Below are positions 5,066 to 58,682 of a DNA stretch of 64,000 bases, piece after piece. The stretch is from Candidatus Melainabacteria bacterium (lineage in GTDB: Bacteria > Cyanobacteriota > Vampirovibrionia > LMEP-6097). Position 1 is the stretch's first letter. Each line of letters begins with the position of its first letter. The stretch is taken from positions 12,133-76,132 of the forward strand of contig JABHOV010000059.1 in NCBI GenBank assembly GCA_018695135.1, in the 5' to 3' direction. The position numbers and the translations under genes were made by a program. The notes below the pieces were generated by a model that had not been told where the DNA came from, made no database searches, and was given only the letters and a program-made list of their open reading frames with translations.

Positions 5066-5906
5066 CAAGATGTTCTGGATAAATACTTACTCCGCCGACA
5101 CCTAGTTCTTTGGCTACGCGCATTGAGATTTTGACCTCTTCACTATTGGTTCTATCACCATCAGTGATTAAGTGGATTCTAAGGTCGTCTCTTTTGGTTA
5201 ATTTACGAAGCCCTATAATACTGTCTTTGACGAAGTTGTAGACAGTGTCATGGTCGCGGTTCTTGAGTCCATGCCAGTAAGTCATTGGCATCAATACATC
5301 CCAGTTGGCTGCCATGTATTCCCAAGGATATTTGCTTTTGATTTCTGGAGAAAAGACTATTGCAATAGTTGGATAGTCAGCTGGGATTTGCGCTTTGATT
5401 TTTTGAGTATAACTTTTGACTGCCCAGAGTGCGGTGTTTTCTTCTATGTCAGCTGCCATACCATCAAGGCTTTCACCATCCTTGCTGACATAAAGTGCTG
5501 GTTCTACAAATTTGCGAACGTCAGTTGGAATATCTCGAAGGTAGCAGTAAGTCCAGCCTATGACTTTAATATCACGCTTGTGAGCTGCTTTGAGAATTTC
5601 ATCAACACCATCTTGTAATTTAAAAATGTCAGTTGTTGACCTATTGACTTGAAGATAAATTGTATCCATATCGAACTTGTCGAGTCTGTCCATAAATGCG
5701 TTAACGTCTTGGGGATAATTCCAAACATTGACCCAAACACCTCTGCCTTCCATCACCGCTTCTTTCAGATCATGATGTGGAGCGAGTTCTTTGAGTTGGT
5801 AGCTTTTTAAAGAAATTGGTTTTTGAATTGCTAGCGCGGGGCTTGTTAGTAGCAGCGCTAAAAGTAGGTTGAGGAGGATTGGCATTATAGATATTATACC
5901 CAGCAT
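5031..5906 (-). CDS. Secreted glycoside-hydrolase-like TIM-barrel protein (GHL10/DUF4015-like); start moved to Met of signal peptide MLGIISIMPILLNLLLALLLTSPALA
   Basis: Signal peptide plus GVWVN..IYLQV pattern; six-frame start at 5996 lies inside palindromic element. Confidence 0.45.
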   Translation of the reverse strand: MLGIISIMPILLNLLLALLLTSPALAIQKPISLKSYQLKELAPHHDLKEAVMEGRGVWVNVWNYPQDVNAFMDRLDKFDMDTIYLQVNRSTTDIFKLQDGVDEILKAAHKRDIKVIGWTYCYLRDIPTDVRKFVEPALYVSKDGESLDGMAADIEENTALWAVKSYTQKIKAQIPADYPTIAIVFSPEIKSKYPWEYMAANWDVLMPMTYWHGLKNRDHDTVYNFVKDSIIGLRKLTKRDDLRIHLITDGDRTNSEEVKISMRVAKELGVGGVSIYPEHLATDAMLKEMGN

Positions 5907-5910
5907 TTCT

Positions 5911-6032
5911 CCACCCACGTTGAGCCTTGCACTTCTTAACAGATAATTGCACTTTGATATACAGACTCCACCTTGACTTTGTCTGCGGGCATGCAATTAT
6001 CTGTTAAGAAGTGCAAGGCTCAACGTGGGTGG
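5911..6032. repeat. 122-bp perfect palindromic element, 41-bp arms with termini CCACCCACGTTGAGCCTT / AAGGCTCAACGTGGGTGG (family 4, copy A)
   Basis: Arms 5911-5951 and 5992-6032 are exact reverse complements. Confidence 0.9.
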
Positions 6033-10862: not shown

Positions 10863-11285
10863 TTAATCTTTGCCATCAATACTAAATTTGCCAGCACCAT
10901 GAGTTAGCAAGACGGAGAGCATTATAAAGTAGTAAAAAGGAATTTCAAAACCGTTAGCACTTGCAGCAAAACCGTTTTTAAAATGCACAACAAAGATTGC
11001 AACGAGCATTGTTACCATTAGTGGTAGCGCAAAGAATCTGGTTTTGAGGCCAAGCACTAAGGCAATTACACCAAGAGATTCTGCTCCTGTTGCCATAACC
11101 GCATTGAGATATGGAAATGGTAAGTGAAGACTATGTTCAAACCACATAACGATGTCGTTGAAATGAGTTAGTTTCTTGAGTGCAGGTTCATAAAAGCCAT
11201 AAGCTAGTGTGAAACGCAAAATCAATAAAGAGAGATCAGCAAAAGAGCTAGTAATTCTATTATATAAGGCTATTAAACTGTTCAT
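10863..11285 (-). CDS. DoxX family membrane protein
   Basis: Four TM helices, DoxX-like length and motif layout. Confidence 0.65.
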   Translation of the reverse strand: MNSLIALYNRITSSFADLSLLILRFTLAYGFYEPALKKLTHFNDIVMWFEHSLHLPFPYLNAVMATGAESLGVIALVLGLKTRFFALPLMVTMLVAIFVVHFKNGFAASANGFEIPFYYFIMLSVLLTHGAGKFSIDGKD

Positions 11286-11439
11286 GGCTTAAGCATAAAC
11301 CTGTGAATGATAGCTGTCAAAAACCAATAGGTACATACGTTATATTCTCAGGGAAAGCTTTTTGAACTGATAGTCTGCAAAGGCTTATGGAGAGAGGATG
11401 AATTTAACGGAGCTATTGTTTAATTGCTTAATAGGATTA

Positions 11440-11560
11440 AACCGGTTTTTATTAGAGATCCTGCAAAACTTTGTTTTGCTAGTGATGTCGACACAAAAAA
11501 GTTTGGAACGGTGCGAAGCGCTAGTTCCTGGAGTGAAGAGGATGGGCTTTTTTACAATAA
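11440..11560. repeat. Family 1 structured repeat, intergenic copy (core CCTGCAAAAC-TTT-GTTTTGCTAGTGATGTCGACA..GGAACGGTGCGAAGCGCTAGTTCC)
   Basis: Shares a ~70-nt core with copies at 14545-14665 and 58255-58370. Confidence 0.85.
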
Positions 11561-11899
11561 GTCTAATGAAATGGAGCAAGGCTTTGCCGTCTCCTCGTTT
11601 GAACCGTATTAAAATAAATAAATCCAGTCAAAAACAATATCAATATGTTTTAGGAGAATTTATTTTGCTGAAGACAAAGTATCAGGTTTGGACAAAAGCG
11701 TTAGACAAAAAGATTGAAAAGCCCAAAGAGATTTTTGAAGTTAAGATCTTAGATTAGCTTTATTTAATTTAAATGAGGTAGATGTTTTGCTTTAGTACAA
11801 GGCGCAAGTCGCCTGAAGAACCGGAGTTATGTGAGCCCATAATGAGGATTCTGAAGACGGCGAAGTAACGCAGTAATAAAGTGAAACGGCACCGGAATT

Positions 11900-12943
11900 T
11901 TACCAGTCGTCAATAATGGCACCCTTGGCATACTCAGTTGCTCTTGTCTCAAAGAAATTAGCATGCTCTTTACCATTCACCATAAGGTTGAGCCAAGGTA
12001 GAGGGTTTTCTGCAACGTCATAAATCGGTTCAAGATTTAAATCGCCGAGGCGTTTATTGGCAACATATCTAATATAGAGCTTGACGTCATTTGGACAGAG
12101 TCCCTCTACCGCTCCTAGTGCAAAACAAGTATCAATAAAGTTGTCTTCAAGTAAAACCATTTCATCGCAGGCTTTATAAAGCTCTTGCCTAAATTTTTCA
12201 GTCCAAAGTTCTGGTTTCTCTTTAATAAATTCTCTAAAGAGACTGCATACACCTTCGGAGTGAAGAGACTCATCACGAATTGACCAAGTAATGATTTGCC
12301 CCACGTTTTTGAGTAAGCCGCGACGCGGGAAGTTCATTAGGATTGCAAAACTTGCAAAGAGACTAACTCCTTCCATAAAGCCACCAAAGACAGCAAGGTT
12401 GCGTGCGATGTCTTGATCGTTTTTGATTGAAAAGTTTTGTAGGTATTCGTACTTGTTTTTCATTGCCTCGTATTCACGGAAGGCTTTGTATTCGACTTCT
12501 GGCAAGCCAAGAGTATCATTCAAGTGAGAGTAAGCCCAAACATGAATGGTTTCCATCGCTGCAAAGCTAGTAAGCATCATAGTGATTTCTGGTTTAGGAA
12601 AAACGTGAACTAGTTGTTGGTTGTAATTGTTTTGTACTTCTAGGTCACCTTGAGTGAAGAAGCGCAGTACTTGAATAATCAAGTTGGATTCCTGAGCCGT
12701 TAGTTTAGTTTTGAAGTCAACGATATCATCAGCCATTGGCACCTCAGTTGGTAGCCAGTGCGCTTGTTGTTGTAGTTTGAAGTACTCAAAGCATTGCGGA
12801 TATTCAAAAGGCTTGTAGTAATCTCGGACGGTTAATAGACCAGTGGTTTCACTGCTTTCGTATACGCGGTTTTCTTCAGCTTCAACAGCTTCTGTTGTGT
12901 CTGTTTCAAAATCATCTATTAGTACTTGTGTTTGTGGGCTCAT
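11900..12943 (-). CDS. nrdB: Class I ribonucleotide reductase beta (R2) subunit
   Basis: Di-iron ligand helices (EAIHVWAYSHL, EGV.LFASFAIL..), C-terminal tail. Confidence 0.9.
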   Translation of the reverse strand: MSPQTQVLIDDFETDTTEAVEAEENRVYESSETTGLLTVRDYYKPFEYPQCFEYFKLQQQAHWLPTEVPMADDIVDFKTKLTAQESNLIIQVLRFFTQGDLEVQNNYNQQLVHVFPKPEITMMLTSFAAMETIHVWAYSHLNDTLGLPEVEYKAFREYEAMKNKYEYLQNFSIKNDQDIARNLAVFGGFMEGVSLFASFAILMNFPRRGLLKNVGQIITWSIRDESLHSEGVCSLFREFIKEKPELWTEKFRQELYKACDEMVLLEDNFIDTCFALGAVEGLCPNDVKLYIRYVANKRLGDLNLEPIYDVAENPLPWLNLMVNGKEHANFFETRATEYAKGAIIDDW

Positions 12944-13221: not shown

Positions 13222-13668
13222 TTAATGCTCTTGACTGTGGAGAGGATTGCTGCAGCTAGTTTCACAGTCATAATGATGACAAAGTCTTAGGTTAATAAAA
13301 TGTGAAATGGCAATTGAAAGGCCACCAAGGCCCATGGAGATTGGATGAGGCATGATGCTTTGAATACTTTGATTTCCTTCGAAATGATGTGAGAGAAAGA
13401 AAAGCGCAGCACCGAGCAGTAATAAATAAAACGGTTCAAAACTACGATGCTTTTTGAGAAAGCCCCAGGCGGTGCTCAGGAAGGCAAGTCCAACTGTAAC
13501 CATCAAGAAGATCGCTTCAAACTTTTCTTCAAACAAAAAGCCAAGTCCAATCAGTGGCGCTATTGTAATCAACAAAGGAGTGAGTGCACAATGGATTGCA
13601 CAGAGCGTACTTGCGCCCATTCCGATTCTATCTACTATTTTTTGTTTTGACATTTGCTTGGTCGTCAT
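13222..13668 (-). CDS. Small membrane protein, MerC-like
   Basis: TM helices with CAIHCALTPLL-type cysteine pair. Confidence 0.35.
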   Translation of the reverse strand: MTTKQMSKQKIVDRIGMGASTLCAIHCALTPLLITIAPLIGLGFLFEEKFEAIFLMVTVGLAFLSTAWGFLKKHRSFEPFYLLLLGAALFFLSHHFEGNQSIQSIMPHPISMGLGGLSIAISHFINLRLCHHYDCETSCSNPLHSQEH

Positions 13669-13728
13669 CCTGTTTCGTCAGGACCTCGTGGCTAATATTC
13701 TAGCTTTCTTGGCTATTTAAGTGAATTA

Positions 13729-13758
13729 TTGGCAGATTTGTGGATGAATATGTATAAT
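13729..13758 (+). promoter_or_regulatory. Candidate promoter TTGGCA-18bp-TATAAT upstream of the Fic gene
   Basis: Hexamers read in sequence. Confidence 0.35.
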
Positions 13759-13769
13759 TATGGATAGAA

Positions 13770-14987
13770 ATGGATAGAAATGGACAAAGATTGGACAATG
13801 TCATCAGCCTTGATCTAAAGCTACAAGGTTTGATTAGTTCTAAATTAAAAAACATTGATCAGTTTAATCTAACTTGGTCAGAATTCGAGTTGAAGGAATC
13901 ACAAGAGTTTTTGCGTGAACTTAAAGAGCTTTCTACTATTCAGAGTATTGGTTCTTCTACGAGAATTGAGGGTTCTAAATTACAAGATGATGAAATTAAA
14001 ACCTTGATCGATAATTTAGATATTAATAAGCTTAAGTCGCGTGATGAAGAGGAAGTGAGCGGCTATTATGAAGCTCTTGATTTGATCTACGAAAATCATG
14101 AGAATTTATTTTTGAGTGAATCATATATAAAGCAATTGCATGCAATTTCGCTTAAGTATAGTTCAAAGGATACTCGCCACCGAGGAGATTATAAATCATT
14201 GTCTAATAAAGTGGTTGCTCAGTATCCTGATGGAAGTTCCAGGGTCGTTTTTGATACTACTGAGCCATACCTAGTGGCAAAAGAGATGACTGATTTGATT
14301 GATTGGTCTAATGAAAGACTTTCATATTCTGGGATTCATTCCTTGATGGTGATAGCTGTTTTTGTTTATGAGTTTCTTTCTATTCACCCTTTTCAAGATG
14401 GCAATGGCCGTTTGTCTCGCTTACTGACCAACTTGTTAATGATGAAGTCAGGTTATAAGTTTGTTCAATATATTTCTTTTGAGCATGTGATTGAACAAAG
14501 AAAAAAAGAATACTATCAAAATCTAATGGAGGCTCAGTCTCAGCGGTTTACGAGACACCCTGCAAAACATGGTTTTGCTAGTGATGTCGACATAAATAAG
14601 GTCGGAACTGTGCGAAGCGCCAGTTCCGCTAATGAAGAGGCGGAGGGCTTTCATGTGAACTGTGCCGCAAGGGAAGATCTTGGCATGTGGATGGTATATT
14701 TCTTAGATTGTGTTGAAAACCTAATCTCAAAACTTAAAACTAAGTTGCACACAAATGATGATCATTGTTTAGATGATTCTGGAGTAAATTTAAGTTCAAC
14801 TCAGAAACAAATCTACACTTTGATCAGCACGAATAAGTCTAGTAAAGTTGAGGATCTGATGAAAGTTTTTCCTGAGATAACGAGACCGACTATTAAATAT
14901 AGTTTGTCGAGGCTTGTTGAGCTTGGTTTAATCAGTCGCCATGGAAGAGGGCGAGGGACTTGGTACCAGACCGCTAAAGCTTACTAA
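13770..14987 (+). CDS. Fic family protein (AMPylase/Doc-like) with N-terminal inhibitory motif STRIEG and C-terminal winged HTH; carries in-frame family-1 repeat
   Basis: HPFQDGNGRLSRLL Fic motif; (S/T)xxxE(G/N) motif near the N-terminus. Confidence 0.85.
   Translation: MDRNGQRLDNVISLDLKLQGLISSKLKNIDQFNLTWSEFELKESQEFLRELKELSTIQSIGSSTRIEGSKLQDDEIKTLIDNLDINKLKSRDEEEVSGYYEALDLIYENHENLFLSESYIKQLHAISLKYSSKDTRHRGDYKSLSNKVVAQYPDGSSRVVFDTTEPYLVAKEMTDLIDWSNERLSYSGIHSLMVIAVFVYEFLSIHPFQDGNGRLSRLLTNLLMMKSGYKFVQYISFEHVIEQRKKEYYQNLMEAQSQRFTRHPAKHGFASDVDINKVGTVRSASSANEEAEGFHVNCAAREDLGMWMVYFLDCVENLISKLKTKLHTNDDHCLDDSGVNLSSTQKQIYTLISTNKSSKVEDLMKVFPEITRPTIKYSLSRLVELGLISRHGRGRGTWYQTAKAY
14545..14665. repeat. 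Family 1 structured repeat inserted in frame in the Fic ORF (encodes ..RHPAKHGFASDVDINKVGTVRSASSANEEAEGF..)
   Basis: Nucleotide identity to copies at 11460-11528 and 58266-58345. Confidence 0.85.
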
Positions 14988-16284: not shown

Positions 16285-16307
16285 TGTGCTGTTTTAATTA
16301 TACCCAT

Positions 16308-16397
16308 TGGGGTCGTATCCTGACATTGGACATTTCTACGGGTTAGGTATTATCACCTTGTTATTAGTTCAAAATGTCCAATGTCAGGATACGACCC
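16308..16397. repeat. Family 2 palindromic element: 26-bp arms GGGTCGTATCCTGACATTGGACATTT / reverse complement around a ~36-nt unique loop
   Basis: Exact inverted repeat; same arms at 47237-47325 and 54184-54276. Confidence 0.9.
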
Positions 16398-16451
16398 TGA
16401 TGGGTCATATGGACTATCTAGATATCCCAGTTAAAGCCGATTAACTATTAT

Positions 16452-31162: not shown

Positions 31163-31352
31163 CCACCCACGTTGAGCCTTCAGATAAGATCCCACCCGCT
31201 GCGTGACATACGCCACTTTTAAGATAAATCGTCTACACAATGGTATTTCTCTGTTGAGTCAGTTTTAGATATCATTTATCTTAAAAGTGGCGTATGTCAC
31301 GCAGCGGGTGGGATCTTATCTCAAAAAGTGGTAAAGGTTGAGACGTGGGTGG
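31163..31352. repeat. Family 4 palindromic element, copy B (~190 bp): termini CCACCCACGTTGAGCCTT / AAGGTTGAGACGTGGGTGG, 49-bp inner inverted repeat
   Basis: Read in sequence; shares 18-bp termini with 5911-6032. Confidence 0.85.
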
Positions 31353-34472: not shown

Positions 34473-35663
34473 ATGCTACTTCAATCTTCTTATTACTGTT
34501 TTCTCGCTTTCATCGCGTCAAGCTTTTTTAGTCCGACAGCTAGAACTATTTTCTTAGTTGCTGGATTGCTTTTGTGGGCTATTGCGTCGTGGCGAGAGCC
34601 AACAACATTTGCGTCAATCCAAGCTGGTCTTAGTAAGGACTTACAAGTATTAAACAGGCTGTTCATTATATATATTTGTGTCAATTCTGTTCTTGCGTAT
34701 ATGCATGACTTGAGTATTTTTGCCTGGATCAAAACATTGCTGGGTACTTATGCTCAATGGTTTTGGGCACTTGCTTTATTGGCTGGTCTCAAGTTTGATT
34801 TTCAAAACAAAATCAGGTTAACTGTAATTGGAGTATCATCATTTACTAGTGTGCTGATCGTGTTGCAGCTGATTGGTTTAGTACCGATGGTTGGAGATTA
34901 TTATGGAGTTTTGTCTCAGGCTTTTACTAGTTCTGGGATGATTTTGGTTGGTTTGTTTTTGAGCTTGGCTCAGTTTAAATCTATTCCTTCTACTAATAGA
35001 CTTACTGAGAAAGCCCCCTTTACTAATGGAACTAGTGCGCCGCACCGTTCCGACAATTACCGCTTTGCTTTTGGACTAGCCTCTTTTGTGCAACTGATCG
35101 CATTATTCGCTCTAGGACAGCGTTCTGTCTGGGCAGGTTTGATTTTGTCTCTATTGTTTTATTTGATTATGACTAAGCAATATCTCAAAAAGAGTTTTTG
35201 GCTTGCCTTGGTTCTTTTGATACTAACTGGCAGTTTTGTGATTTCAAGTTCTGAGCGTGTCGGTCGTAAAGTTGAGCGTTTTGCAAATCCTCATTATTGG
35301 ACTCAGGCTAACAGTATTAAAGTCAGACAAGAACTGTGGCAGATTAATAAAGAGGCGTGGCAAGCTAAGCCATTGACCGGAATTAATGAAATCATTAAGC
35401 ATGAGGGATTGAGGCATGCACACAATATTTATTTCCAGCAACTTTATACTGGTGGCTGGCTTAGATTTATTGCTTGGTTGAGTTTTTATTTAGTCGCGGG
35501 ATTCTTTTTGTTTCGTCGAATTACAACAGCGCCTGAGTTTTTTGCTATCTATATTGCGCTGAGTGCAGAAGGAGTTTTGGAGAATTGGTGGGGAGATAGC
35601 GAGGTTCTGAGCTTGTTTTTAGTGGCTTTGATATTGGGATTGGGGAAGAAATATAAGGAATAG
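34473..35663 (+). CDS. O-antigen ligase (WaaL/Wzy_C) family membrane protein; start moved past the repeat
   Basis: ~10 TM helices and AHNIYFQQL motif in periplasmic loop. Confidence 0.5.
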   Translation: MLLQSSYYCFLAFIASSFFSPTARTIFLVAGLLLWAIASWREPTTFASIQAGLSKDLQVLNRLFIIYICVNSVLAYMHDLSIFAWIKTLLGTYAQWFWALALLAGLKFDFQNKIRLTVIGVSSFTSVLIVLQLIGLVPMVGDYYGVLSQAFTSSGMILVGLFLSLAQFKSIPSTNRLTEKAPFTNGTSAPHRSDNYRFAFGLASFVQLIALFALGQRSVWAGLILSLLFYLIMTKQYLKKSFWLALVLLILTGSFVISSSERVGRKVERFANPHYWTQANSIKVRQELWQINKEAWQAKPLTGINEIIKHEGLRHAHNIYFQQLYTGGWLRFIAWLSFYLVAGFFLFRRITTAPEFFAIYIALSAEGVLENWWGDSEVLSLFLVALILGLGKKYKE

Positions 35664-38376: not shown

Positions 38377-39414
38377 ATGCGTTACCTCTGCTTGATTCTA
38401 TTATTGTTTAGCTCTTCTGCTTGTTCTAAAAAAGCTGCCCCGGTTGCTGCCGTAAAACCATTATTTGTCAAAGCAGAAGCTGCAACTACCGGTGATATAG
38501 AGCGTGCCTTTGAAACGGCTGGTGAACTGAAAGCGGATAAAGAGATTTTGGTTGCAGCTGAGCGGCCGGGGATGGTCAAAGAGATTTATGTGCGTGAAGG
38601 ACAATGGGTTAAGGCAGGTCAGGCTTTGATTCAAATAGAGGGTAAGGATGTTGATGCTGATTTAAAAAAAGCACAAAGTGATTTTGCTTCTTACCAAAAC
38701 CTGTTTGATCAGGGAGCTATTTCTAAACAAGAACTAATTAATTATGAAGCTCAACTGCGTAGAGTCGAGTCACAGATTGATAATCTCCAGATTAATGCAA
38801 TTAGTTCTGGATTTATTGGGGTGATATATGTTGATCCTGGTGACTATGTTAAACGAGGTGATAAGATTCTGGATTTGGTTAAGATTTATCCATTGAGAGT
38901 GAGTTATTCGGTGCCAGAGAAATTGATCTCCAAAATTTTAATTGGACAAAGCGTAGAACTACGTACTGACTCAGAAGCTGGCAAGGTTTTTAATGCAAGT
39001 GTTGATTTTATTTCACCAAGAGTTGATCCTAATACTAGAGCGGTTTTAGTTCGCGGGAAAATCAATAGCCCAAGTACTAATCTCAAAGCTAATCAGTTTG
39101 TTACTGTCAAACAAGTTATTAATAGTTCTAATACGACTTTATTGGTGAGAGAAGAAGCGCTCTATCTTAATCAAGGACAGGAGTATTTGTATCTCGCGTC
39201 GTCATTGCGAGCCGAGGCGAAGCAAGCTAATGTAGAGACTCCGGAGATCGACGCGTCTGATGAACTTGTAGCCAAACGTGTAGCTGTAAAAACCGGTCAG
39301 AGACAAGAAGGCATGGTAGAAATTTTAGAAGGTATTGAAGCTGGTGACAATGTGATCTATGCTGGTTTGCATAGTATTTATCCTGGGGCTAAGTTGGTTT
39401 TGGTTAGTGACTAA
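38377..39414 (+). CDS. RND efflux periplasmic adaptor (membrane fusion protein), lipoprotein; contains family-3 repeat fragment
   Basis: Lipobox SSSAC, coiled-coil hairpin, lipoyl and beta-barrel segments. Confidence 0.8.
   Translation: MRYLCLILLLFSSSACSKKAAPVAAVKPLFVKAEAATTGDIERAFETAGELKADKEILVAAERPGMVKEIYVREGQWVKAGQALIQIEGKDVDADLKKAQSDFASYQNLFDQGAISKQELINYEAQLRRVESQIDNLQINAISSGFIGVIYVDPGDYVKRGDKILDLVKIYPLRVSYSVPEKLISKILIGQSVELRTDSEAGKVFNASVDFISPRVDPNTRAVLVRGKINSPSTNLKANQFVTVKQVINSSNTTLLVREEALYLNQGQEYLYLASSLRAEAKQANVETPEIDASDELVAKRVAVKTGQRQEGMVEILEGIEAGDNVIYAGLHSIYPGAKLVLVSD
39193..39260. repeat. Family 3 repeat fragment inside adaptor ORF (..TCGCGTCGTCATTGCGAGCCGAGGCGAAGCAAGCTAATG..CGACGCG)
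   Basis: Left arm near-identical to 51136-51167. Confidence 0.75.
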
Positions 39415-45661: not shown

Positions 45662-47236
45662 ATGTCTAATTTTCGTTATCGCAGCATACAAATACTCATT
45701 GCTTTAGCATTTCTTGCTATCTTGGGACGTTTATTTCAATTTCAAATTCTTAATGGGCAAAAATATTCTGCTTACATTAAGCGCTATGGACAGACCTACA
45801 AAATTAGTCCTGCAAGAGCAGAGATTGTTGATCGTAACGACAAAGTACTTGCTTTGGATTTGATGAAATATACACTTGAATATAATCCCGTGACTACTAG
45901 TGAGGATAGAGGCATGCTTGCTTTCAAACTAGAGCAAATGATTGATTTGAAAGATCCAGAAGATCTCAATGCTAGTTATAGTAAGACTCTTGCGCATGGT
46001 TTGAGTCGCGAACAGGCAAACAAAATTAGGAAGCTTGATTCCAAATTATTATACTTGCGTCAAGTTAGGCGCAGATTTTATCCACAAGATGAGCTGGCTT
46101 CTCATGTGCTTGGCTATGTTGATCTTTATGGACAAGCAAGGCAAGGTATTGAAGCTGACTATCAAAAGAGATTAGAAGAAGACTCAGAGAACAAGCTTAG
46201 ATTGAGCTTGGATTCTCGCTTGCAAGTTTTTGCCGAAACAGAATTAAAGAAGCGAATTGCTGAAACGAAGGCGGCAAGAGGGACTGTTTTGTTAATGGAA
46301 GTTGCTACTGGACAAATGATGGCAATGGCTACTAGCCCAGGATTCAATCCTAATAACTATTTTGATTTTAGTTTGTCACAAATTAAAAACTGGCCTTTGG
46401 TTGATGTCTATCAACCGGGTTCTATTTTTAAGATAGTGACAGTGGCATCTGCCCTAGAGTCTGGGACTATAGATTTGAGTCATCGTTTTGTAGATGAAGG
46501 CTTTTTGGAGATTGATAAATGGAAAATCAAAAATCATGAATACAAACTAGGTAAGACTGAGGCTGAGGAATTGAATCTGCAAAACTTGTTTGAACGATCA
46601 AGTAATACTTTTGCTGCACATCTGGCACTAGCAATGGGTCCTAAGGTTTTTCATGATCAGATTAGCAAGTTTGGCTTTGGGCAAAAAACGGGGATCGAAT
46701 TAAGTGGGGAGTCCAAGGGTATTTTGCTTAAGCACAAAAAATGGCGTAAGTCCGATACTGCAACTACAGGCATGGGTCATGGTGCCATTTCTGTTACTCC
46801 GTTACAGTTGCTGGCAGCAGCTAATGTCATTGCCAATGACGGTCATTGGGCTAGACCGACTTTGTTTCTTGATTCTAAACAGCCGTTGGCTGAAGAGCTT
46901 GAACCAATTATCAGTGCTGAGCATGCTTATAGTATTAGAAATCTTTTGGCAAGAGCCATTGATCACAATTTGAAATTCAAATCTAGCGTGGCTGGACGTG
47001 TTGATAATTTGACGATAGCTGGTAAAACTGGCACAGCAGAGAAAATCAAAGCAGGTGGAGGCTACTCCAAAAAAGAAACAGTCGCTTCTTTCTTAGGTTT
47101 CTTCCCGGCTTATAATCCAAAATATATCGCCTTAGTTGTAATTGATGATCCCAAGACTGATGGTCGTTGGGGTGATACTGTGGCTGGACCTTTGTTTAAC
47201 AAGATTGCTGCTTACACTAGAGACTTGTATTTATAA
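45662..47236 (+). CDS. Penicillin-binding protein, FtsI/PBP2-type transpeptidase
   Basis: N-terminal TM anchor, SIFK (SxxK), KTGTAE. Confidence 0.85.
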   Translation: MSNFRYRSIQILIALAFLAILGRLFQFQILNGQKYSAYIKRYGQTYKISPARAEIVDRNDKVLALDLMKYTLEYNPVTTSEDRGMLAFKLEQMIDLKDPEDLNASYSKTLAHGLSREQANKIRKLDSKLLYLRQVRRRFYPQDELASHVLGYVDLYGQARQGIEADYQKRLEEDSENKLRLSLDSRLQVFAETELKKRIAETKAARGTVLLMEVATGQMMAMATSPGFNPNNYFDFSLSQIKNWPLVDVYQPGSIFKIVTVASALESGTIDLSHRFVDEGFLEIDKWKIKNHEYKLGKTEAEELNLQNLFERSSNTFAAHLALAMGPKVFHDQISKFGFGQKTGIELSGESKGILLKHKKWRKSDTATTGMGHGAISVTPLQLLAAANVIANDGHWARPTLFLDSKQPLAEELEPIISAEHAYSIRNLLARAIDHNLKFKSSVAGRVDNLTIAGKTGTAEKIKAGGGYSKKETVASFLGFFPAYNPKYIALVVIDDPKTDGRWGDTVAGPLFNKIAAYTRDLYL

Positions 47237-47325
47237 GGGTCGTATCCTGTCATCTGACATTTCAATGTATTACAAACGATCTTAATTAGTGATACACTGA
47301 AATGTCAGATGACAGGATACGACCC
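47237..47325. repeat. Family 2 palindromic element, variant arms GGGTCGTATCCTGTCATCTGACATTT with three compensatory changes in the partner arm
   Basis: Both arms read in sequence. Confidence 0.9.
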
Positions 47326-47871
47326 TGTTTGGCGCAGGAAATCTTCATGTGCATTTTTATTGGTGTAGTTGGTAACGCGCAAATAAGCTGACCAAGGTAT
47401 TTGATTTTCGCTTGCAACTTTGGCTATACCGTAGAGCTCCATGTTTTCTATAATTGCGTCTGTTTGATAATGTTTAATAATTTGTTTGGAGATAGTCTCG
47501 TCTTGAGTGATTTCAAGACTTGAGAGGCATAAAATATTCTTTGAATCTGGATGACTGGCGTGAAGAATAGGATAAATATCTTTGATAGTGTAGCTAAGTC
47601 CTTGAACTGATCCGAGATTTAAAAGAGCTGCAGCACTAACTATGATTTGCTCGCCAATCTTGATATTTTGGCTATAGGCACCGGCTGTGCCAGTAAAGAT
47701 GATTTCGGAGATATCGTTTCTTGATTGAAGTAGTTTAGAGAGATTGACAGCTGCTTCAAGATAGCCAATGCCAAGTACCTCTAAAATATGGGTTTTACTG
47801 GTTAAATAGGGCAAATCCGCTGGATTCTCTGCTAGTTCGTTTTTGCAGGCTGCGCAAATAAGGCTTGTCAT
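47305..47871 (-). CDS. PNP/MTAN-family nucleosidase, possible futalosine hydrolase MqnB
   Basis: Short 188-aa MTAN-like layout (..IIFTGTAGAY..). Confidence 0.55.
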   Translation of the reverse strand: MTSLICAACKNELAENPADLPYLTSKTHILEVLGIGYLEAAVNLSKLLQSRNDISEIIFTGTAGAYSQNIKIGEQIIVSAAALLNLGSVQGLSYTIKDIYPILHASHPDSKNILCLSSLEITQDETISKQIIKHYQTDAIIENMELYGIAKVASENQIPWSAYLRVTNYTNKNAHEDFLRQTGSYPVI

Positions 47872-48372: not shown

Positions 48373-48405
48373 TATTTCTGAAGCTGTAAGCTTCAGAAAT
48401 ACTCA
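48373..48405. terminator. Perfect 15-bp-stem hairpin AGTATTTCTGAAGCT-GTA-AGCTTCAGAAATACT directly after stop codon
   Basis: Read in sequence; no U-run. Confidence 0.45.
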
Positions 48406-48444
48406 TCGCGTCGTAGCGTAGTGAAGACGGATAACGTCTCTCTG
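48403..48444. repeat. Family 3-related repeat fragment TCATCGCGTCGTAGCGTAGTGAAGACGG..
   Basis: Aligns with reverse complement of 51425-51464. Confidence 0.55.
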
Positions 48445-49189: not shown

Positions 49190-50052
49190 CCTACTTGATT
49201 GAAGCTGATGACTTGGTTGCAACAGTGCCTGGGACTTTGACATTGAAAGATTTGGATAGTGATTTAATTCAACAGTGTTTAATTTCTACTTTGCTTGCTC
49301 CAGCTCATTATACAATTGCACAAATCTTGGCAGAGGATTGGGGACATGACGCTAGGCAGGTTCTGGGACTTGGTTTGAAACATGCCAGTGGCTTGCATAC
49401 CAAAACCGGCGGCAAGGTAATCAAAAATGTATCTGGTTATGATTTGAGTAAAATATATTTAGGTAGTTGCGAATCCTTGGCAAAGATTGAAACAGCAAGT
49501 TTGCGTTTGGAGAAACTACCATTATTGATTTGTGAATTGAGCTTGAAGCTTGAACGAGAACTTGATCTTGACTTGATTGTTTTTTTGCACAAAATAGCGA
49601 CGATGGATTTTGATGAGAGTTTTGATGTGGAATTAAATATGCTCGGTGAGATCAAGTTGAGTTTTACTGCCACAAGTAAAGAACTCATGGCTTTGAAACA
49701 AGCTCGCTTGGCTAGAAGGCTAGAAGGTTTTTGGGATCATGAACTTAGTTTGGATTTTGTGGTACAGCCTTATAAAAAACAATACCCCAGTACTGATTTA
49801 AGGATTGAAATTCATGGAGTTTTGACGACTTTGCTCAATACCGCAAAGTCATTAGGGCAGCCTTGTCAGATCTACCCCAAGAGAGGCTATCTACTGTTAG
49901 AGTCTTCTGTCCAGAATTTAAAAAAGCTAGATGATTGTTACTACTATGTTTATCCCAAGACCGATGAAAACAAAAAACTAGAAACCCAGTTGAACGATAC
50001 TGATAACGCAGAGTTGGATTTATTCAAACAACTCCAAAAGGATTTTGCTTAA
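49186..50052 (+). CDS. GlcE-like FAD-binding subunit lacking the N-terminal part of the FAD_binding_4 domain
   Basis: KTGGKVIKNVSGYDLSKIYLGS motif of glycolate oxidase GlcE; starts where GlcE homologs are ~90 aa in. Confidence 0.55.
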   Translation: MTYLIEADDLVATVPGTLTLKDLDSDLIQQCLISTLLAPAHYTIAQILAEDWGHDARQVLGLGLKHASGLHTKTGGKVIKNVSGYDLSKIYLGSCESLAKIETASLRLEKLPLLICELSLKLERELDLDLIVFLHKIATMDFDESFDVELNMLGEIKLSFTATSKELMALKQARLARRLEGFWDHELSLDFVVQPYKKQYPSTDLRIEIHGVLTTLLNTAKSLGQPCQIYPKRGYLLLESSVQNLKKLDDCYYYVYPKTDENKKLETQLNDTDNAELDLFKQLQKDFA

Positions 50053-51344
50053 TGGACGCAGCGACGATTAATGAAACGATTAAGGCTTGTATTCATTGCG
50101 GTATCTGCCTGCCAGCCTGCCCGACTTATCAGGTAACAGGTAATGAAGGACATTCGCCGCGTGGAAGATTGTACTTAATTAATGATCTCTTGACTAATGA
50201 GACTGGAGCCAGGGAAGATGTCGTTGAGTATTTGGATGGCTGCCTTGAATGCTCCGCCTGTGAAACGGTCTGTCCATCAGGTGTTGACTATGTCAATATT
50301 CTTGAATATGCTCGCCATGAATTGGGTCTGAGCAATTACACTAAGGGCTTTATGGCTGCTGTTAGACGCCTGGTGTTCCAGTATTTATTGCCGAATAGAG
50401 TCTTGTTGAATCTGGCAAGAGTGATGGGGCGTTTTTTGCCTTTGCGGTTATTCAATAAGCTAGCGCCGGGTTTTGATTTTGAATACAAAAAAATCAAGAC
50501 GGATTATATTTATAAATCTCAAAGTCGGACTTCGCGGACAGTCTCCATGCCACTGGGTTGTGTAATGGATACGATTTATAATGATGTGCATTGGGATAGT
50601 ATTCAAGTACTCAACGCTTTTGGTTATGATGTCTATATACCTGAAACTCAGTGCTGCGGTGCTCTTGCTTATCATAGTGGTGAAAACAAACTTGGTGAAA
50701 AACAGCTTGAGGAAACCACGTCGATACTAGCTAAGCATCAGTATCCAGTAGTAATGAACTCAGCGGGTTGTGGGGCTTTTATTAAAAATCATTCTGATTT
50801 AGAATCGATGGATTTAATTGAGGCTTTGAAACAAGCACCGTCATTGCGAGGAGCAGACGCGGCGCGGCAATCTAACGCAGGGGACTGGATTGCCACGCAC
50901 TCTTTGAGTGCTCGCAATGATGAAATAATTTATGCCGTTTACCACCCTGCCTGTCATCTCAATCATAAGCAAGGAGTCTCGCAAGACTATGTTGAATTGT
51001 TGAAAAGAATCCCAAGTTTGGAATTAATACCACTACATGAAGCAGACCTTTGTTGCGGCTCGGCTGGATTTTATAATTTAATTCAAAGCAAGCTTGCTGG
51101 TGAGATTGGTAAACGTAAGGCAGAGAATATTACATCGTCATTGCGAGCGTTAGCGAAGCAATCTAATGCAAGATCCAAGGGCGCGGCAATTAAATTCTCT
51201 GTATTAGATTGCTTCGCTAACGCTCGCAATGACGTGATTGTACTTACTGCAAATCCCGGTTGCATGTCTCAAATCCAAGCTCACTTGGGTGATGAATATC
51301 AAGTTATGCATCCTATTAGTTTGATTAAGCAATACTTGAATTAG
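50052..51344 (+). CDS. glcF: Glycolate oxidase iron-sulfur subunit GlcF-like with two in-frame family-3 repeat insertions
   Basis: Two CxxCxxCxxxCP ferredoxin motifs, two CCG domains. Confidence 0.8.
   Translation: MDAATINETIKACIHCGICLPACPTYQVTGNEGHSPRGRLYLINDLLTNETGAREDVVEYLDGCLECSACETVCPSGVDYVNILEYARHELGLSNYTKGFMAAVRRLVFQYLLPNRVLLNLARVMGRFLPLRLFNKLAPGFDFEYKKIKTDYIYKSQSRTSRTVSMPLGCVMDTIYNDVHWDSIQVLNAFGYDVYIPETQCCGALAYHSGENKLGEKQLEETTSILAKHQYPVVMNSAGCGAFIKNHSDLESMDLIEALKQAPSLRGADAARQSNAGDWIATHSLSARNDEIIYAVYHPACHLNHKQGVSQDYVELLKRIPSLELIPLHEADLCCGSAGFYNLIQSKLAGEIGKRKAENITSSLRALAKQSNARSKGAAIKFSVLDCFANARNDVIVLTANPGCMSQIQAHLGDEYQVMHPISLIKQYLN
50839..50922. repeat. Family 3 palindromic repeat, copy inside GlcF (CGTCATTGCGAG..CTCGCAATGATG)
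   Basis: Arms CATTGCGAG/CTCGCAATG with nested GGCAATC/GATTGCC. Confidence 0.8.
51136..51234. repeat. Family 3 palindromic repeat, full copy: 32-bp perfect arms CGTCATTGCGAGCGTTAGCGAAGCAATCTAAT / ATTAGATTGCTTCGCTAACGCTCGCAATGACG
   Basis: Read in sequence; in frame in GlcF. Confidence 0.9.
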
Positions 51345-52692
51345 TCGTTTGACAAAAACTCCTAGCCACCTTAGCTATATTACCCGCTCCCACTATAAAT
51401 AAATAATCGCAGTCTTGTAAATGTCCGTCTTCTCTCTCGTTTTCGCTCCGCTTCGACGCGATGAAACTTTCAATACCAGGTCTCAGAGCAGCTACCATAT
51501 CAGCATGATTACCTTGGCTAGTAGCTCTTGTATCTATCGGTGCTAAGAACTGCACATTGGTTTTATTAATTGCAGCAACCAGTGAAGCCGAATCAACACC
51601 ATTGATATGCTGACTACGAGCTACATAAATATCAGCAATCAAACAAAGATGCGGTTCAGGAAATTCTTTGAAGACTTCTATAAAATCATTCCAAAATTGT
51701 TGAGTACGTTCTGGGTGATGTGGTTGATATACAAAAACTAGTCGTTTGGGATTGAGGCTTAGAACTCCTTCTAACAGTGCTCGCAGTTCGGTGGGGTGGT
51801 GGGCGTAGTCATCATATACACGAATGCCGTTATAGTCTGAATTGATCAGTTCAAAACGGCGCTTGATGCCATTAAAAGATTGAAGAGCTTTAATTGCAGC
51901 TTCTGTGTTAAGCCCTAGTGCCTCTGCTGCTTTGATGCAACCCAATGCATTGAGCTTATTGTATTCACCTGGCATTGTTAATTGAATGTCGTAGTCATTT
52001 AATTCAGAACTTGAATATCTAATCAAAGTCTTTCCACTCGATTGCTTCGCTTCGCTCGCAATGACGTATTCCTTGAGTAACGCATCATCCATATTAACAA
52101 CAGCAATTTCTGCACTATCAAGAAATTTATAAAAACAATCACGAATCTCATTCAGTCCACCAGGATAGTTCTCAAGATGGTCTTCTTCAATACAAGTAAC
52201 CAAGGCTAGATATGGATTGGTAATGGTAAAGCTCTTGTCGCTTTCGTCACCCTCGAGCACAAAATACTCTCCAGAACCTGCTTTGGCATTACTCTGATAA
52301 TTCGATAGAATTCCACCTACTGCAAAACTAGGATCAAAACCAGTCTCAACTAAAATATGTGCAAGCATCGCTGAGCAAGTGGTTTTGCCATGAGTGCCCG
52401 AGATGACAATTTGTTTGTGTCCTTGAGATAAATAATTCAGCATATCTCTGCGGTGCCAAACAGGCAAGCTGCGAGATTTGAGTTCGAGGTAATCAGCATC
52501 ACCGATACCAATTGCAGTACTGCGCACTACTAAGTCAATATCATTATCGAGTGGATCATTCTCTGTGTAACTTAAATCACTTTTAGAAATTTTGACCTCT
52601 GGTTTTTGCTGAGCAAGGATTTTAACCAGTGCAGACATACCGATGCCTTCGGCACCTAAAAATCTTGCATGTTTAAATCTCTCTTGAGACAT
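51325..52692 (-). CDS. murC: UDP-N-acetylmuramate--L-alanine ligase with two family-3 repeat fragments in frame
   Basis: ISGTHGKTTCSAML, DDYAHHPTE, C-terminal VGAGNIAK. Confidence 0.85.
   Translation of the reverse strand: MSQERFKHARFLGAEGIGMSALVKILAQQKPEVKISKSDLSYTENDPLDNDIDLVVRSTAIGIGDADYLELKSRSLPVWHRRDMLNYLSQGHKQIVISGTHGKTTCSAMLAHILVETGFDPSFAVGGILSNYQSNAKAGSGEYFVLEGDESDKSFTITNPYLALVTCIEEDHLENYPGGLNEIRDCFYKFLDSAEIAVVNMDDALLKEYVIASEAKQSSGKTLIRYSSSELNDYDIQLTMPGEYNKLNALGCIKAAEALGLNTEAAIKALQSFNGIKRRFELINSDYNGIRVYDDYAHHPTELRALLEGVLSLNPKRLVFVYQPHHPERTQQFWNDFIEVFKEFPEPHLCLIADIYVARSQHINGVDSASLVAAINKTNVQFLAPIDTRATSQGNHADMVAALRPGIESFIASKRSENEREDGHLQDCDYLFIVGAGNIAKVARSFCQTTNSSIA
51425..51464. repeat. 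Family 3-related fragment inside murC 3' region
   Basis: Reverse complement TCATCGCGTCGAAGCGGAGCGAAAACGAG. Confidence 0.55.
52039..52066. repeat. Family 3 right-arm fragment inside murC (CGATTGCTTCGCTTCGCTCGCAATGACG)
   Basis: Near-identical to 51207-51234. Confidence 0.75.
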
Positions 52693-53893: not shown

Positions 53894-54160
53894 CTAAGCA
53901 GTAAGAGCTTTAATCTTGGCGGCTAATCTAGATTTGTATCTAGCAGCGGCATTGAGATGAATAACTTTGCGTTTAACGGCTCTATCAATTCTTGAAAACG
54001 CTTCTGGCAATTTTGCAAGAGCTTCTTCACCATTAGCAGCTTCTATTGCTTGACGAACAGCTCTAATGGCCGTACGCATACTTGATCTAACAGTGGCGTT
54101 ATTGATTCTGTTGCGTTCTGCTGTTTTTACTCTTTTCTTTGCTGATTTTATGTTTGGCAT
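53894..54160 (-). CDS. rpsT: 30S ribosomal protein S20
   Basis: MPNIKSAKKRVKTAERNR..AAARYKSRLA. Confidence 0.9.
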   Translation of the reverse strand: MPNIKSAKKRVKTAERNRINNATVRSSMRTAIRAVRQAIEAANGEEALAKLPEAFSRIDRAVKRKVIHLNAAARYKSRLAAKIKALTA

Positions 54161-54183
54161 AGTGAAAAAGATTGTATCACATA

Positions 54184-54276
54184 GGGTCGTATCCTGACAT
54201 TGGACATTTGCTACACTATATATTATCCGCTGGGCAAAGTTATTTAACTAAAATGTCCAATGTCAGGATACGACCC
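54184..54276. repeat. Family 2 palindromic element, third copy
   Basis: Same 26-bp arms as 16308-16397. Confidence 0.9.
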
Positions 54277-54280
54277 TACT

Positions 54281-58109: not shown

Positions 58110-58682
58110 ATGAAAGTACGAAAACTAACAACAGATTACTTCAACCAAGTACATGATCTGATCAAGTTTTATTCTGAGCGTCGTTTGATGTTGCCACTTA
58201 GTCTTGATGAGCTTTATCATAGAGCGCAGGCTTATCGAATTATTGTAGGGGACAGCGATAGACATCCTGCAAAACAAGGTTTTGCTAGTGATGTCGCCAC
58301 AAAAGAGGTCGGAATCATGCGGAGCATGTGTTCCGCTAAGGGAAATGAGTTAGACCTTGGCAAGAAGCCTATGGGGACAGTCCTTGCTTGCGCTCATCTC
58401 GATATTTTTACACCACAACTCGCTGAAATCAAAAGCCTTGCTGTTATTGAAACGGAGCATGGTAAAGGCTATGGTAAGACTTTAGTCATGGATTGTGAGC
58501 AAGATGCCAAGGCTATTGGTATCAAGAAGCTTTTTGTCTTAACTTACCAACAGGATTTTTTTACTAAGCTCGGTTACCAGGTTGTTGATCGTAATACTTT
58601 GCCTGAGAAGGTCTATAAAGAATGCATCAAATGTAGCTATTTCGATGATTGTAATGAAATTGCGATGGTTAAGAGCCTCTAG
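58110..58682 (+). CDS. GNAT family N-acetyltransferase with in-frame family-1 repeat
   Basis: Acetyl-CoA binding ..EHGKGYGKTLV.. motif A. Confidence 0.75.
   Translation: MKVRKLTTDYFNQVHDLIKFYSERRLMLPLSLDELYHRAQAYRIIVGDSDRHPAKQGFASDVATKEVGIMRSMCSAKGNELDLGKKPMGTVLACAHLDIFTPQLAEIKSLAVIETEHGKGYGKTLVMDCEQDAKAIGIKKLFVLTYQQDFFTKLGYQVVDRNTLPEKVYKECIKCSYFDDCNEIAMVKSL
58255..58370. repeat. Family 1 structured repeat inserted in frame in GNAT ORF (encodes ..DRHPAKQGFASDVATKEVGIMRSMCSAKGNELDLGKKPMG..)
   Basis: Core CCTGCAAAAC-AAG-GTTTTGCTAGTGATGTCGCCACAAAAGAGGTCGGAATCATGCGGAGCATGTGTTCC. Confidence 0.85.

Follow-up and report, generated by a model that had tools for sequence, protein, structure and literature searches.

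How a gene for an iron-sulfur protein can hold two DNA palindromes within its coding sequence and still be read in one frame is the question raised by a GlcF-like gene in a 64-kb stretch of a Candidatus Melainabacteria metagenome-assembled genome (MAG; the whole stretch is called the window below). Melainabacteria are the non-photosynthetic sister group of Cyanobacteria. The first-pass annotation of this DNA had described the two segments, here termed the site-1 and site-2 elements, as in-frame palindromic insertions into glcF, a reading borne out by an empty site 2 in a relative (P0003) and by the recurrence of the same unit in other genes of the window and of related genomes. Comparison of these sequences supports the view that each segment arose by insertion of a palindromic repeat with dispersed copies. 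The repeats are probably of the repetitive extragenic palindrome (REP) type, selfish or neutral, and able to persist only where length, reading frame and protein fold permit.

In a protein alignment of 22 homologs, distant GlcF-like proteins have a bare site 2, reading ...IKNT-GAK-(I/V)VLTANPGC, and a short variable linker at site 1. The statement that other GlcF proteins run without the segment thus holds (distant homologs read ...IKNT-GAK-VLTANPGC), and conservation of the two segments at the protein level was not found in distant members of this alignment. The closer relative P0003 (76% identical by BLASTP) has a site 2 that is cleanly empty in its DNA, where ...GAGTCA is followed at the junction by GGTGCCAAG..., and it keeps the ancestral GAK. 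Filled alleles have their outer ends in common (TCGTCATTGCGAGCG / GCTCGCAATGACGTG) and differ in their interiors and in net size (+87 nt in the window, +69 nt in P0002, +45 nt in P0004 and +60 nt in P0005); the left unit of the window allele is of the same subtype as the orthologous left unit in P0005. Site 1 is occupied by inverted pairs in the window and P0005, by single forward units in P0003 and P0004, and by a reverse unit with a different stem in P0002. A tree built with the insert regions masked, ((((P0002,P0003)0.96, window)1.0, P0004)0.85, P0005)0.97, nests the empty P0003 allele among filled ones. Simple deletion is an unlikely origin of this empty site, as the GAK of distant homologs is retained there; repeated gain at one site, or replacement of the patch by recombination, is therefore needed.

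What is shared among the filled alleles is shared as DNA. Identity at third codon positions reaches 66/72 (92%) in the ends of the site-2 element, compared with 339/582 (58%) in the flanking gene (p = 2.5e-9), an excess indicating conservation at the DNA level and not at the protein level. It could stem from re-insertion of conserved copies, from gene conversion or from a constraint on the hairpin.

The repeat has a common unit of about 29-30 nt, with the anatomy (C)GTC - ATTGCGAG - variable core - GCAAT - C(C/T)A. A census of the window with a profile of this unit yields six units at four loci, namely 39200 (+), 50839 (+), 50920 (-), 51136 (+), 51234 (-) and 52066 (-), and all six canonical units are intragenic: they lie in an RND efflux adaptor gene, in the two elements of the GlcF-like gene and in a murC-like gene (Table 1). 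The motif GTCATTGCGAGCG, with up to two mismatches, has seven matches in the window where 0.82 are expected (0 of 100 shuffles reach seven), and CATTGCGAG has six exact matches where 0.54 are expected. With a GC content of 0.47-0.60 (0.60 at site 1) against 0.40 for the window, the elements are also compositional outliers. [quoted passage not shown] The adaptor assignment rests on an RND_mfp score of 169 bits, above its cutoff, and the murC assignment on TIGR01082 at 285 bits, below the cutoff of 335.

Neighbouring genes of relatives carry further copies. The GatD-like gene of L006 has a 24-aa in-frame insert, SSLRACEAIQ...SPRND, and its PNP-like gene has the in-frame insert LDCFARAHND; a further position in murC, called site B, has no element in the window, one TGTC-headed unit in L003 and a pair in L006. 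Next to the GlcF-like gene, on its upstream side, the GlcE-like gene encodes 288 aa in the window but 332 aa (L132) and 374 aa (L133) in two relatives, and CGTC units lie inside the longer two: a pair with a CCCCCAAAGGGGG core occurs at 3412-3525 of L132, and a unit at 9798-9832 of L133. The P0005 genome (L006) has units at 164-192, 1682-1759, 5246-5315 and 5444-5471, in-frame in its PNP-like, GatD-like and murC-like genes; with those of its GlcF-like gene it totals at least nine CGTC units in six element loci and four genes within 5.5 kb.

Table 1. The GlcF-like host gene, its two palindromic elements and other copies of the repeat unit (positions are those of the window).
Feature	Position	Strand	Description
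GlcF-like (Fe-S)-binding protein gene	50052..51344	+	430 aa; ferredoxin part (2x[4Fe-4S]) at the N-terminus; two CCG domains
Site-1 element	50839..50922	+	84 nt, 28 codons; inverted pair of two unlike units; encodes SLRGADAARQSNAGDWIATHSLSARND, about aa 263-290, in the linker between the CCG domains
Site-1 left unit	50839..50874	+	CGTC-ATTGCGAG-GAGCAGACGCGGCGCG-GCAAT-CTA; nhmmer E 3.6e-08
Site-1 right unit	50886..50922	-	CATC-ATTGCGAG-CACTCAAAGAGTGCGTG-GCAAT-CCA; nhmmer E 0.0013; unit HMM (hidden Markov model) match 50920-50886
Site-2 element	51136..51234	+	99 nt, 33 codons; near-perfect palindrome; encodes SLRALAKQSNARSKGAAIKFSVLDCFANARND, about aa 362-394, within the second CCG domain
Site-2 left unit	51136..51168	+	CGTC-ATTGCGAG-CGTTAGCGAA-GCAAT-CTAATG; nhmmer E 2.5e-06
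Site-2 spacer	51171..51199	.	29 nt; direct repeat D1 to the site-1 left unit
Site-2 right unit	51202..51234	-	near-identical inverted copy of the left unit; nhmmer E 2.5e-06
Single unit in murC-like gene (51325-52692, -)	52038..52066	-	in-frame, read VIASEAKQS
Single unit in RND efflux adaptor gene (38377-39414, +)	39200..39232	+	in-frame, read SSLRAEAKQANV
Candidate diverged relative of the unit (low confidence)	51426..51468	-	in-frame insert of 14 aa (SFIASKRSENEREDGH), close to the C-terminal end of the murC-like gene

The site-2 arms (51136-51170 and 51200-51234) are 35 nt long, lie 29 nt apart and are 97% complementary; their sole mismatch falls at arm position 33, in agreement with the perfect 32-bp arm first reported at 51136-51234. 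The site-1 element had been taken for a shorter, nested copy of the same palindrome and proves instead to be a pair of two different units, with outer arms CGTCATTGCGAG / CTCGCAATGATG that match at 11 of 12 positions (10 perfect) and an inner inverted pair of 11 nt (50862-50872 / 50888-50898, 91% complementary). Its right unit has a degenerate head and a core that forms an internal 6-bp hairpin. In local alignment, the reverse complement of the site-2 spacer resembles the interior of the second unit type found at site 2 in P0002 (15/19), a match suggesting that the near-perfect palindrome is a rearranged derivative, by inversion or template switch, of an older pair of unlike units.

As DNA, both elements fold better than shuffled sequences (site 2, -41.4 kcal/mol and z -11.9; site 1, -21.9 kcal/mol and z -3.9). 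With nearest-neighbour DNA parameters single arms do no better than shuffles, except 50881-50922 (-) with z -4.1, which may be because such folding undervalues GCGNAGC-type motifs. These parameters are expected to undervalue both GCGNAGC mini-hairpins and tandem G.A pairs, and in our judgement weak folding of single arms thus does not count against a unit hairpin. The GCGNAGC / GCGNNAGC DNA mini-hairpin is described as extraordinarily stable (PMC13037366), and the unit cores and the window arms, which carry GCGTTAGC, fit this motif. Stems of at least 4 bp occur in 20% of unit cores against 5.6% of shuffles, with many different stem sequences, and in the commonest units the one base that varies falls exactly on the free loop position of GCGNAGC.

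Both elements are in-frame in the host gene and their translation reads SLR...ARND; the peptides are exactly those quoted in the first-pass annotation. For each of the two elements SLR...RND, the frame in use, is the only stop-free frame on either strand. The sequence CAATGAC puts TGA in one frame per strand and so limits pairs to four open frames of six. A 60-aa open reading frame (ORF) on the minus strand, 51083-51265 (-), merely mirrors the site-2 palindrome in its translation (SLRALAKQSNTENLIAAPLDLALDCFANARND) and is in all likelihood spurious, an example of how palindromes make false ORFs.

The host protein gives Pfam matches (E <= 0.01) to Fer4-type families (Fer4_8 and the N-terminal dicluster) and to CCG over two stretches. 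Its N-terminus matches HdrC by sequence comparison and its C-terminal half matches LutA and HdrB by fold comparison. The name glcF first given to the gene stands as a best-match label, the GlcF equivalog NF008434 being the top NCBIfam model, and goes too far as an identification, since the score is 212 bits and the curated cutoff 333. The ORF upstream, in the same orientation, has a weak GlcE match (35.6 bits, cutoff 284), and an NCBIfam search of neighbouring ORFs revealed no adjoining glcD partner. In view of the low NF008434 score and the weak GlcE neighbour, it is safer to call the gene GlcF-like. For an identical protein, P0001, NCBI uses the name '(Fe-S)-binding protein [Candidatus Melainabacteria bacterium]' and JGI the name 'glycolate oxidase iron-sulfur subunit'.

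In the alignment with homologs, all conserved Cys and CCG columns of the host protein are kept. Both segments had been placed before the last CCG region, which is correct for site 1, in the linker preceding the second CCG domain, and not for site 2, which lies within that domain, between its CCG triplet (C334-C335-G336) and the last conserved Cys (NPGC404). The NF008434 profile alignment ends at residue 372, the exact start of insert 2, so such inserts can truncate HMM alignments and lower annotation scores. An AlphaFold model of the protein is confident overall (predicted template modelling score, pTM, 0.83), and its predicted local distance difference test (pLDDT) values fall below 50 only at residues 268-278, 281-288 and 375-392; both inserts are accordingly modelled as low-confidence loops and are probably disordered. 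Tryptic peptides predicted to cross the insert junctions include ...AENITSSLR, ALAKQSNAR and NDVIVLTANPGC....

How far the repeat extends beyond this clade was addressed by a cross-genome scan for CGTCATTGCGAG-N45-75-CTCGCAATGACG, with one genome per species. It shows such pairs, identical in their 12-nt ends, in at least 120 stretches from genomes of many phyla; among the matches listed are Bradyrhizobium, Sphingomonadales, Rickettsiales (L025, L056 and L073), Micavibrio, Bacteroidota, Legionellales/Coxiellaceae, Anaerolineae, Margulisiibacteriota and a Caenarcanales MAG. The commonest units among these listed matches are CGTCATTGCGAGCG[C/A/T/G]AGCGAAGCAATCCA, and the cross-phylum consensus ends in GCAAT-CCA. 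From the 40%-GC Melainabacteria to the 64%-GC Bradyrhizobium the CGTC unit is nearly invariant. The 128 inverted pairs from other genomes among the matches listed have lengths in all three classes modulo 3 (38/39/51), indicating that the family as a whole is free of coding constraint. Complete pairs are also present in 97 stretches of viral contigs (IMG/VR, L134-L213), some with two or three copies per contig (for example L159, L191 and L199); these viral or prophage contigs may be vectors, or merely colonised prophages. Judged from these matches, the family is not specific to one genome and is a cross-phylum, CGTC-headed, REP-like family.

Among the known systems closest to it is the superfamily of CGTC-tagged REPs (Di Nocera, De Gregorio and Rocco 2013, BMC Genomics 14:522; PMC3733652), described as having an unpaired head of CGTC (or TGTC/CCTC), AT at the beginning of the stem, an unpaired 3-nt tail with the consensus CCA and mostly inverted pairs, and as present in five phyla with alpha-Proteobacteria prominent. 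Members have no dedicated transposase, and in-frame intragenic copies are known, often as pairs coding for 20-30 aa and sometimes two per ORF (PMC3733652). Compared by these described features rather than by consensus sequences, the anatomy of our unit appears to fit the superfamily. The head is CGTC in five of six window units and CATC in one, and CGTC or (T)GTC in relatives, TGTC and CATC being occasional in the superfamily too; ATTGC...GCAAT follows the head directly in all units; the consensus tail is CCA, with CTA, CCA or CGA in the window. Both GlcF-like elements are inverted pairs, the prevailing arrangement in the superfamily, where spacers vary, and Bradyrhizobium, Sphingomonads, Micavibrio and Rickettsia are prominent hosts there. 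The stem agrees only loosely: the superfamily has 8-9 bp of Watson-Crick pairing and a loop of 4-5 nt, whereas window units have a 5-bp outer stem and a core mini-hairpin of 2-6 bp and would need G.A pairs for continuity. Some units of relatives come near the canonical stem (L004 at 2779, ATTGCGAGCC GAAG GCGACGCAAT). In contrast to the superfamily, whose copies are mostly intergenic, all six canonical units of the window are inside genes, and Melainabacteria are not among the taxa discussed in PMC3733652.

Rickettsia palindromic elements (RPEs) are a second point of reference, RPE-6 and RPE-4 corresponding to CGTC-1 and CGTC-4 according to Di Nocera et al. (PMC3733652). RPEs are palindromes with terminal inverted repeats (TIRs) that lie in-frame in conserved housekeeping genes and leave the ORF intact (Ogata et al. 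2000 and 2002, reviewed in PMC2229807), as the elements described here do; the likeness rests on this description, on the RPE-4/6 = CGTC-4/1 equivalence and on the Rickettsiales matches rather than on a comparison of consensus sequences. Their effect has been judged neutral or slightly detrimental, and a guanylate kinase (gmk) bearing an RPE is produced and works as an enzyme, with a slight change in its affinity for substrate (PMC2229807). The classical RPE-1 differs in being longer (105-146 bp) and was described as specific to Rickettsia, an obligate intracellular host, whereas the present host belongs to a free-living or environmental Melainabacteria lineage. In-frame insertion of this kind is thus already described (PMC3733652, PMC2229807). 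What is new here is the Melainabacteria host, the apparent dominance of intragenic copies in a syntenic block, the differing versions at the same sites and the quantified conservation at the DNA level. Literature searches on the motif strings returned chance primer matches only, those on palindromic repeats of Melainabacteria returned nothing relevant, and the peptides and the motif are not present in the supplements of Di Nocera et al. (PMC3733652).

REPs of the type associated with a REP-associated tyrosine transposase (RAYT), including bacterial interspersed mosaic elements (BIMEs), likewise consist of short hairpin units, often in inverted pairs, with high copy number and DNA-level conservation, and single-strand transposition by their IS200/IS605-like Y1 HUH enzymes is expected to leave no target-site duplication. 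However, those units are GTAG-headed and flank a RAYT gene (REPtron), whereas the head here is CGTC, and no recurrent HUH-like neighbour was found near the 120 loci of the scan; this class was rejected. [quoted passage not shown] They usually come with target-site duplications, often TA, and with a parent insertion sequence (IS) carrying matching TIRs (PMC2229807, PMC10969869). Despite TIR-like ends, a MITE was rejected, as no target-site duplication was seen at four junctions and no parent IS or transposase near the 120 loci. An intein or a group I/II intron was also dismissed: Pfam gives no Hint or endonuclease domain, Rfam gives no match in the window, and the inserts measure just 28 and 33 aa.

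If the segments are REP-type repeats, each element would be an inverted pair of a hairpin unit of about 30 nt, with a CGTC head, an ATTGC...GCAAT outer stem, a variable core usually containing a GCGNAGC-type mini-hairpin, and a CCA/CTA tail. The family would spread, or be copied, as DNA through some trans-acting activity, and most insertions into genes would be lost. Survival would call for a net length that is a multiple of three, a stop-free frame (SLR...ARND for both window elements) and a permissive loop. The translated peptides would be neutral or slightly deleterious decorations, and the near-invariant ends would owe nothing to protein function, resulting from processes acting on DNA such as re-insertion of conserved copies, conversion of one copy by another or a constraint on the hairpin.

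The elements might instead be kept for a nucleic-acid role, with the peptide as a by-product: as an mRNA hairpin acting on transcript stability, RNase III-type processing or translation pausing, or as a DNA site for protein binding, gyrase or replication pausing. REPs have generally been proposed as RNA or DNA elements (PMC3733652), and the RNA hairpins predicted here are very strong in comparison with shuffles (-65.1 kcal/mol and z -12.9 for site 2; -39.5 kcal/mol and z -5.0 for site 1). The ends, moreover, are conserved at synonymous positions far beyond the flanks, and the same sites are filled in several lineages. Yet P0003 and all distant homologs manage without the site-2 element, the interiors are so unlike among relatives (+87, +69, +45 and +60 nt) that no fixed structure is kept, the units occur in unrelated genes with no shared theme, and no Rfam family has a match in the window; we consider such a role unlikely. 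Selection on the peptides, as adaptive surface loops that alter partner binding or regulation of the GlcF-like subunit and were fixed for that reason, strikes us as highly improbable. Insert-bearing alleles do persist over a clade with up to ~25% protein divergence, the structural model continues helix 346-374 into the N-terminal part of insert 2, and a positive effect of such fusions has been left possible (PMC2229807). But it is the DNA ends and not the interiors that are conserved among relatives, disorder is predicted for the inserts, unrelated proteins contain the same peptides, the nested relative P0003 is without insert 2, and in-silico removal of both inserts does not lower the GlcF family score (212.3 to 214.8 bits, a difference that is not discriminating).

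A more trivial origin, in which the palindromes are artefacts of metagenome assembly or the gene is a decaying pseudogene, has in our estimate a negligible chance of being correct. The source is a MAG, chimeric assembly can yield palindromes, and neither the GlcF nor the GlcE equivalog score reaches its cutoff. Against this, the 1293-nt gene has 0 differences across five contigs from differing samples and assemblers, and an 80-kb JGI contig encodes an identical protein; recovery of the same gene from independent assemblies speaks against an assembly artefact. The ORF is intact with all invariant Cys ligands present, and relatives in other samples carry homologous elements at the same sites.

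Several observations nevertheless weigh against selfish or neutral repeats that are simply filtered by tolerance. GlcF sites 1 and 2 and murC site B hold differing element versions in different lineages, and the empty P0003 allele is nested among filled ones, so that a purely random process of hit and filter needs either strong site preference or recombination between alleles. The DNA-level conservation could equally reflect a function. The source genome is covered by 64 kb, and copy number and the ratio of coding to intergenic copies refer to the window only. Clustering of neighbour ORFs of at least 90 aa around the 120 element loci, a search of neighbourhoods and not of whole genomes, brought out no recurrent transposase-like family; the recurring clusters were common paralogs only (ABC ATPase, histidine kinase, SDR and LysR). 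No target-site duplication was found at the GlcF site 2, GatD-like, murC site B and PNP-like junctions, where diverged flanks could hide a very short one, and no mobilising enzyme has been reported for CGTC repeats (PMC3733652). A more specific and rather speculative proposal is that some activity of host or phage origin, conserved widely, recognises the hairpin and places it at preferred sites with no duplication of the target, and that this activity, present now or recently in the clade, has repeatedly struck the same loops (GlcF sites 1 and 2, murC site B).

The invasion of housekeeping genes by in-frame palindromes was first regarded as peculiar to Rickettsia and was later seen in a few other bacteria. 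The Melainabacteria case widens this host range, with one Fe-S enzyme struck twice and its neighbour genes struck differently in each relative. For annotation, inserts of this kind make proteins look longer, disrupt profile-HMM alignments and give rise to spurious mirror ORFs, for which annotation pipelines and function calls by homology should allow in these MAGs. Recurrence at the same sites together with DNA-level conservation provides a tractable comparative data set on how CGTC-type repeats move, and if the proposed site-preferring, duplication-free activity were true, the clade would be a natural system for finding the mechanism by which CGTC-REPs are mobilised.

Other repeats and genes around these loci deserve brief mention. 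The candidate relative at 51426-51468 is absent in L003 and L006 in both protein and DNA alignments and is 79% complementary to an intergenic stretch, 48396-48429 (+), upstream of the GatD-like gene; the two may form a diverged subfamily of the CGTC repeat. In the more distant relative L133, an AbiEii/DUF6922 pair (11244-12129) separates the GlcF-like gene from murC, and just beyond murC lies a DUF6364/PIN pair (13660-14348); both look like toxin-antitoxin pairs, and the corresponding places in the window contain neither.

A different palindromic family, AGGGTCGTATCCTGACATTGGACATTT and its complement with arms of 27-41 nt, occurs in the window at 16302-16405, 47236-47326 and 54182-54278. At least two of its three copies lie just beyond ORF ends, for example one behind the PBP gene, which ends at 47236, and one beside the S20 gene (53894-54160), and the family is probably terminator-like or REP-like. 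Two more long palindromes unlike the CGTC family are found at 5911-6032 (arms of 41 nt at 100%) and 31179-31324 (51 nt at 98%). Direct repeats of 94 nt are present in three copies (11448-11541, 14547-14640 and 58254-58347) with 69-100% identity, accompanied by a partial inverted copy at 35015-35051.

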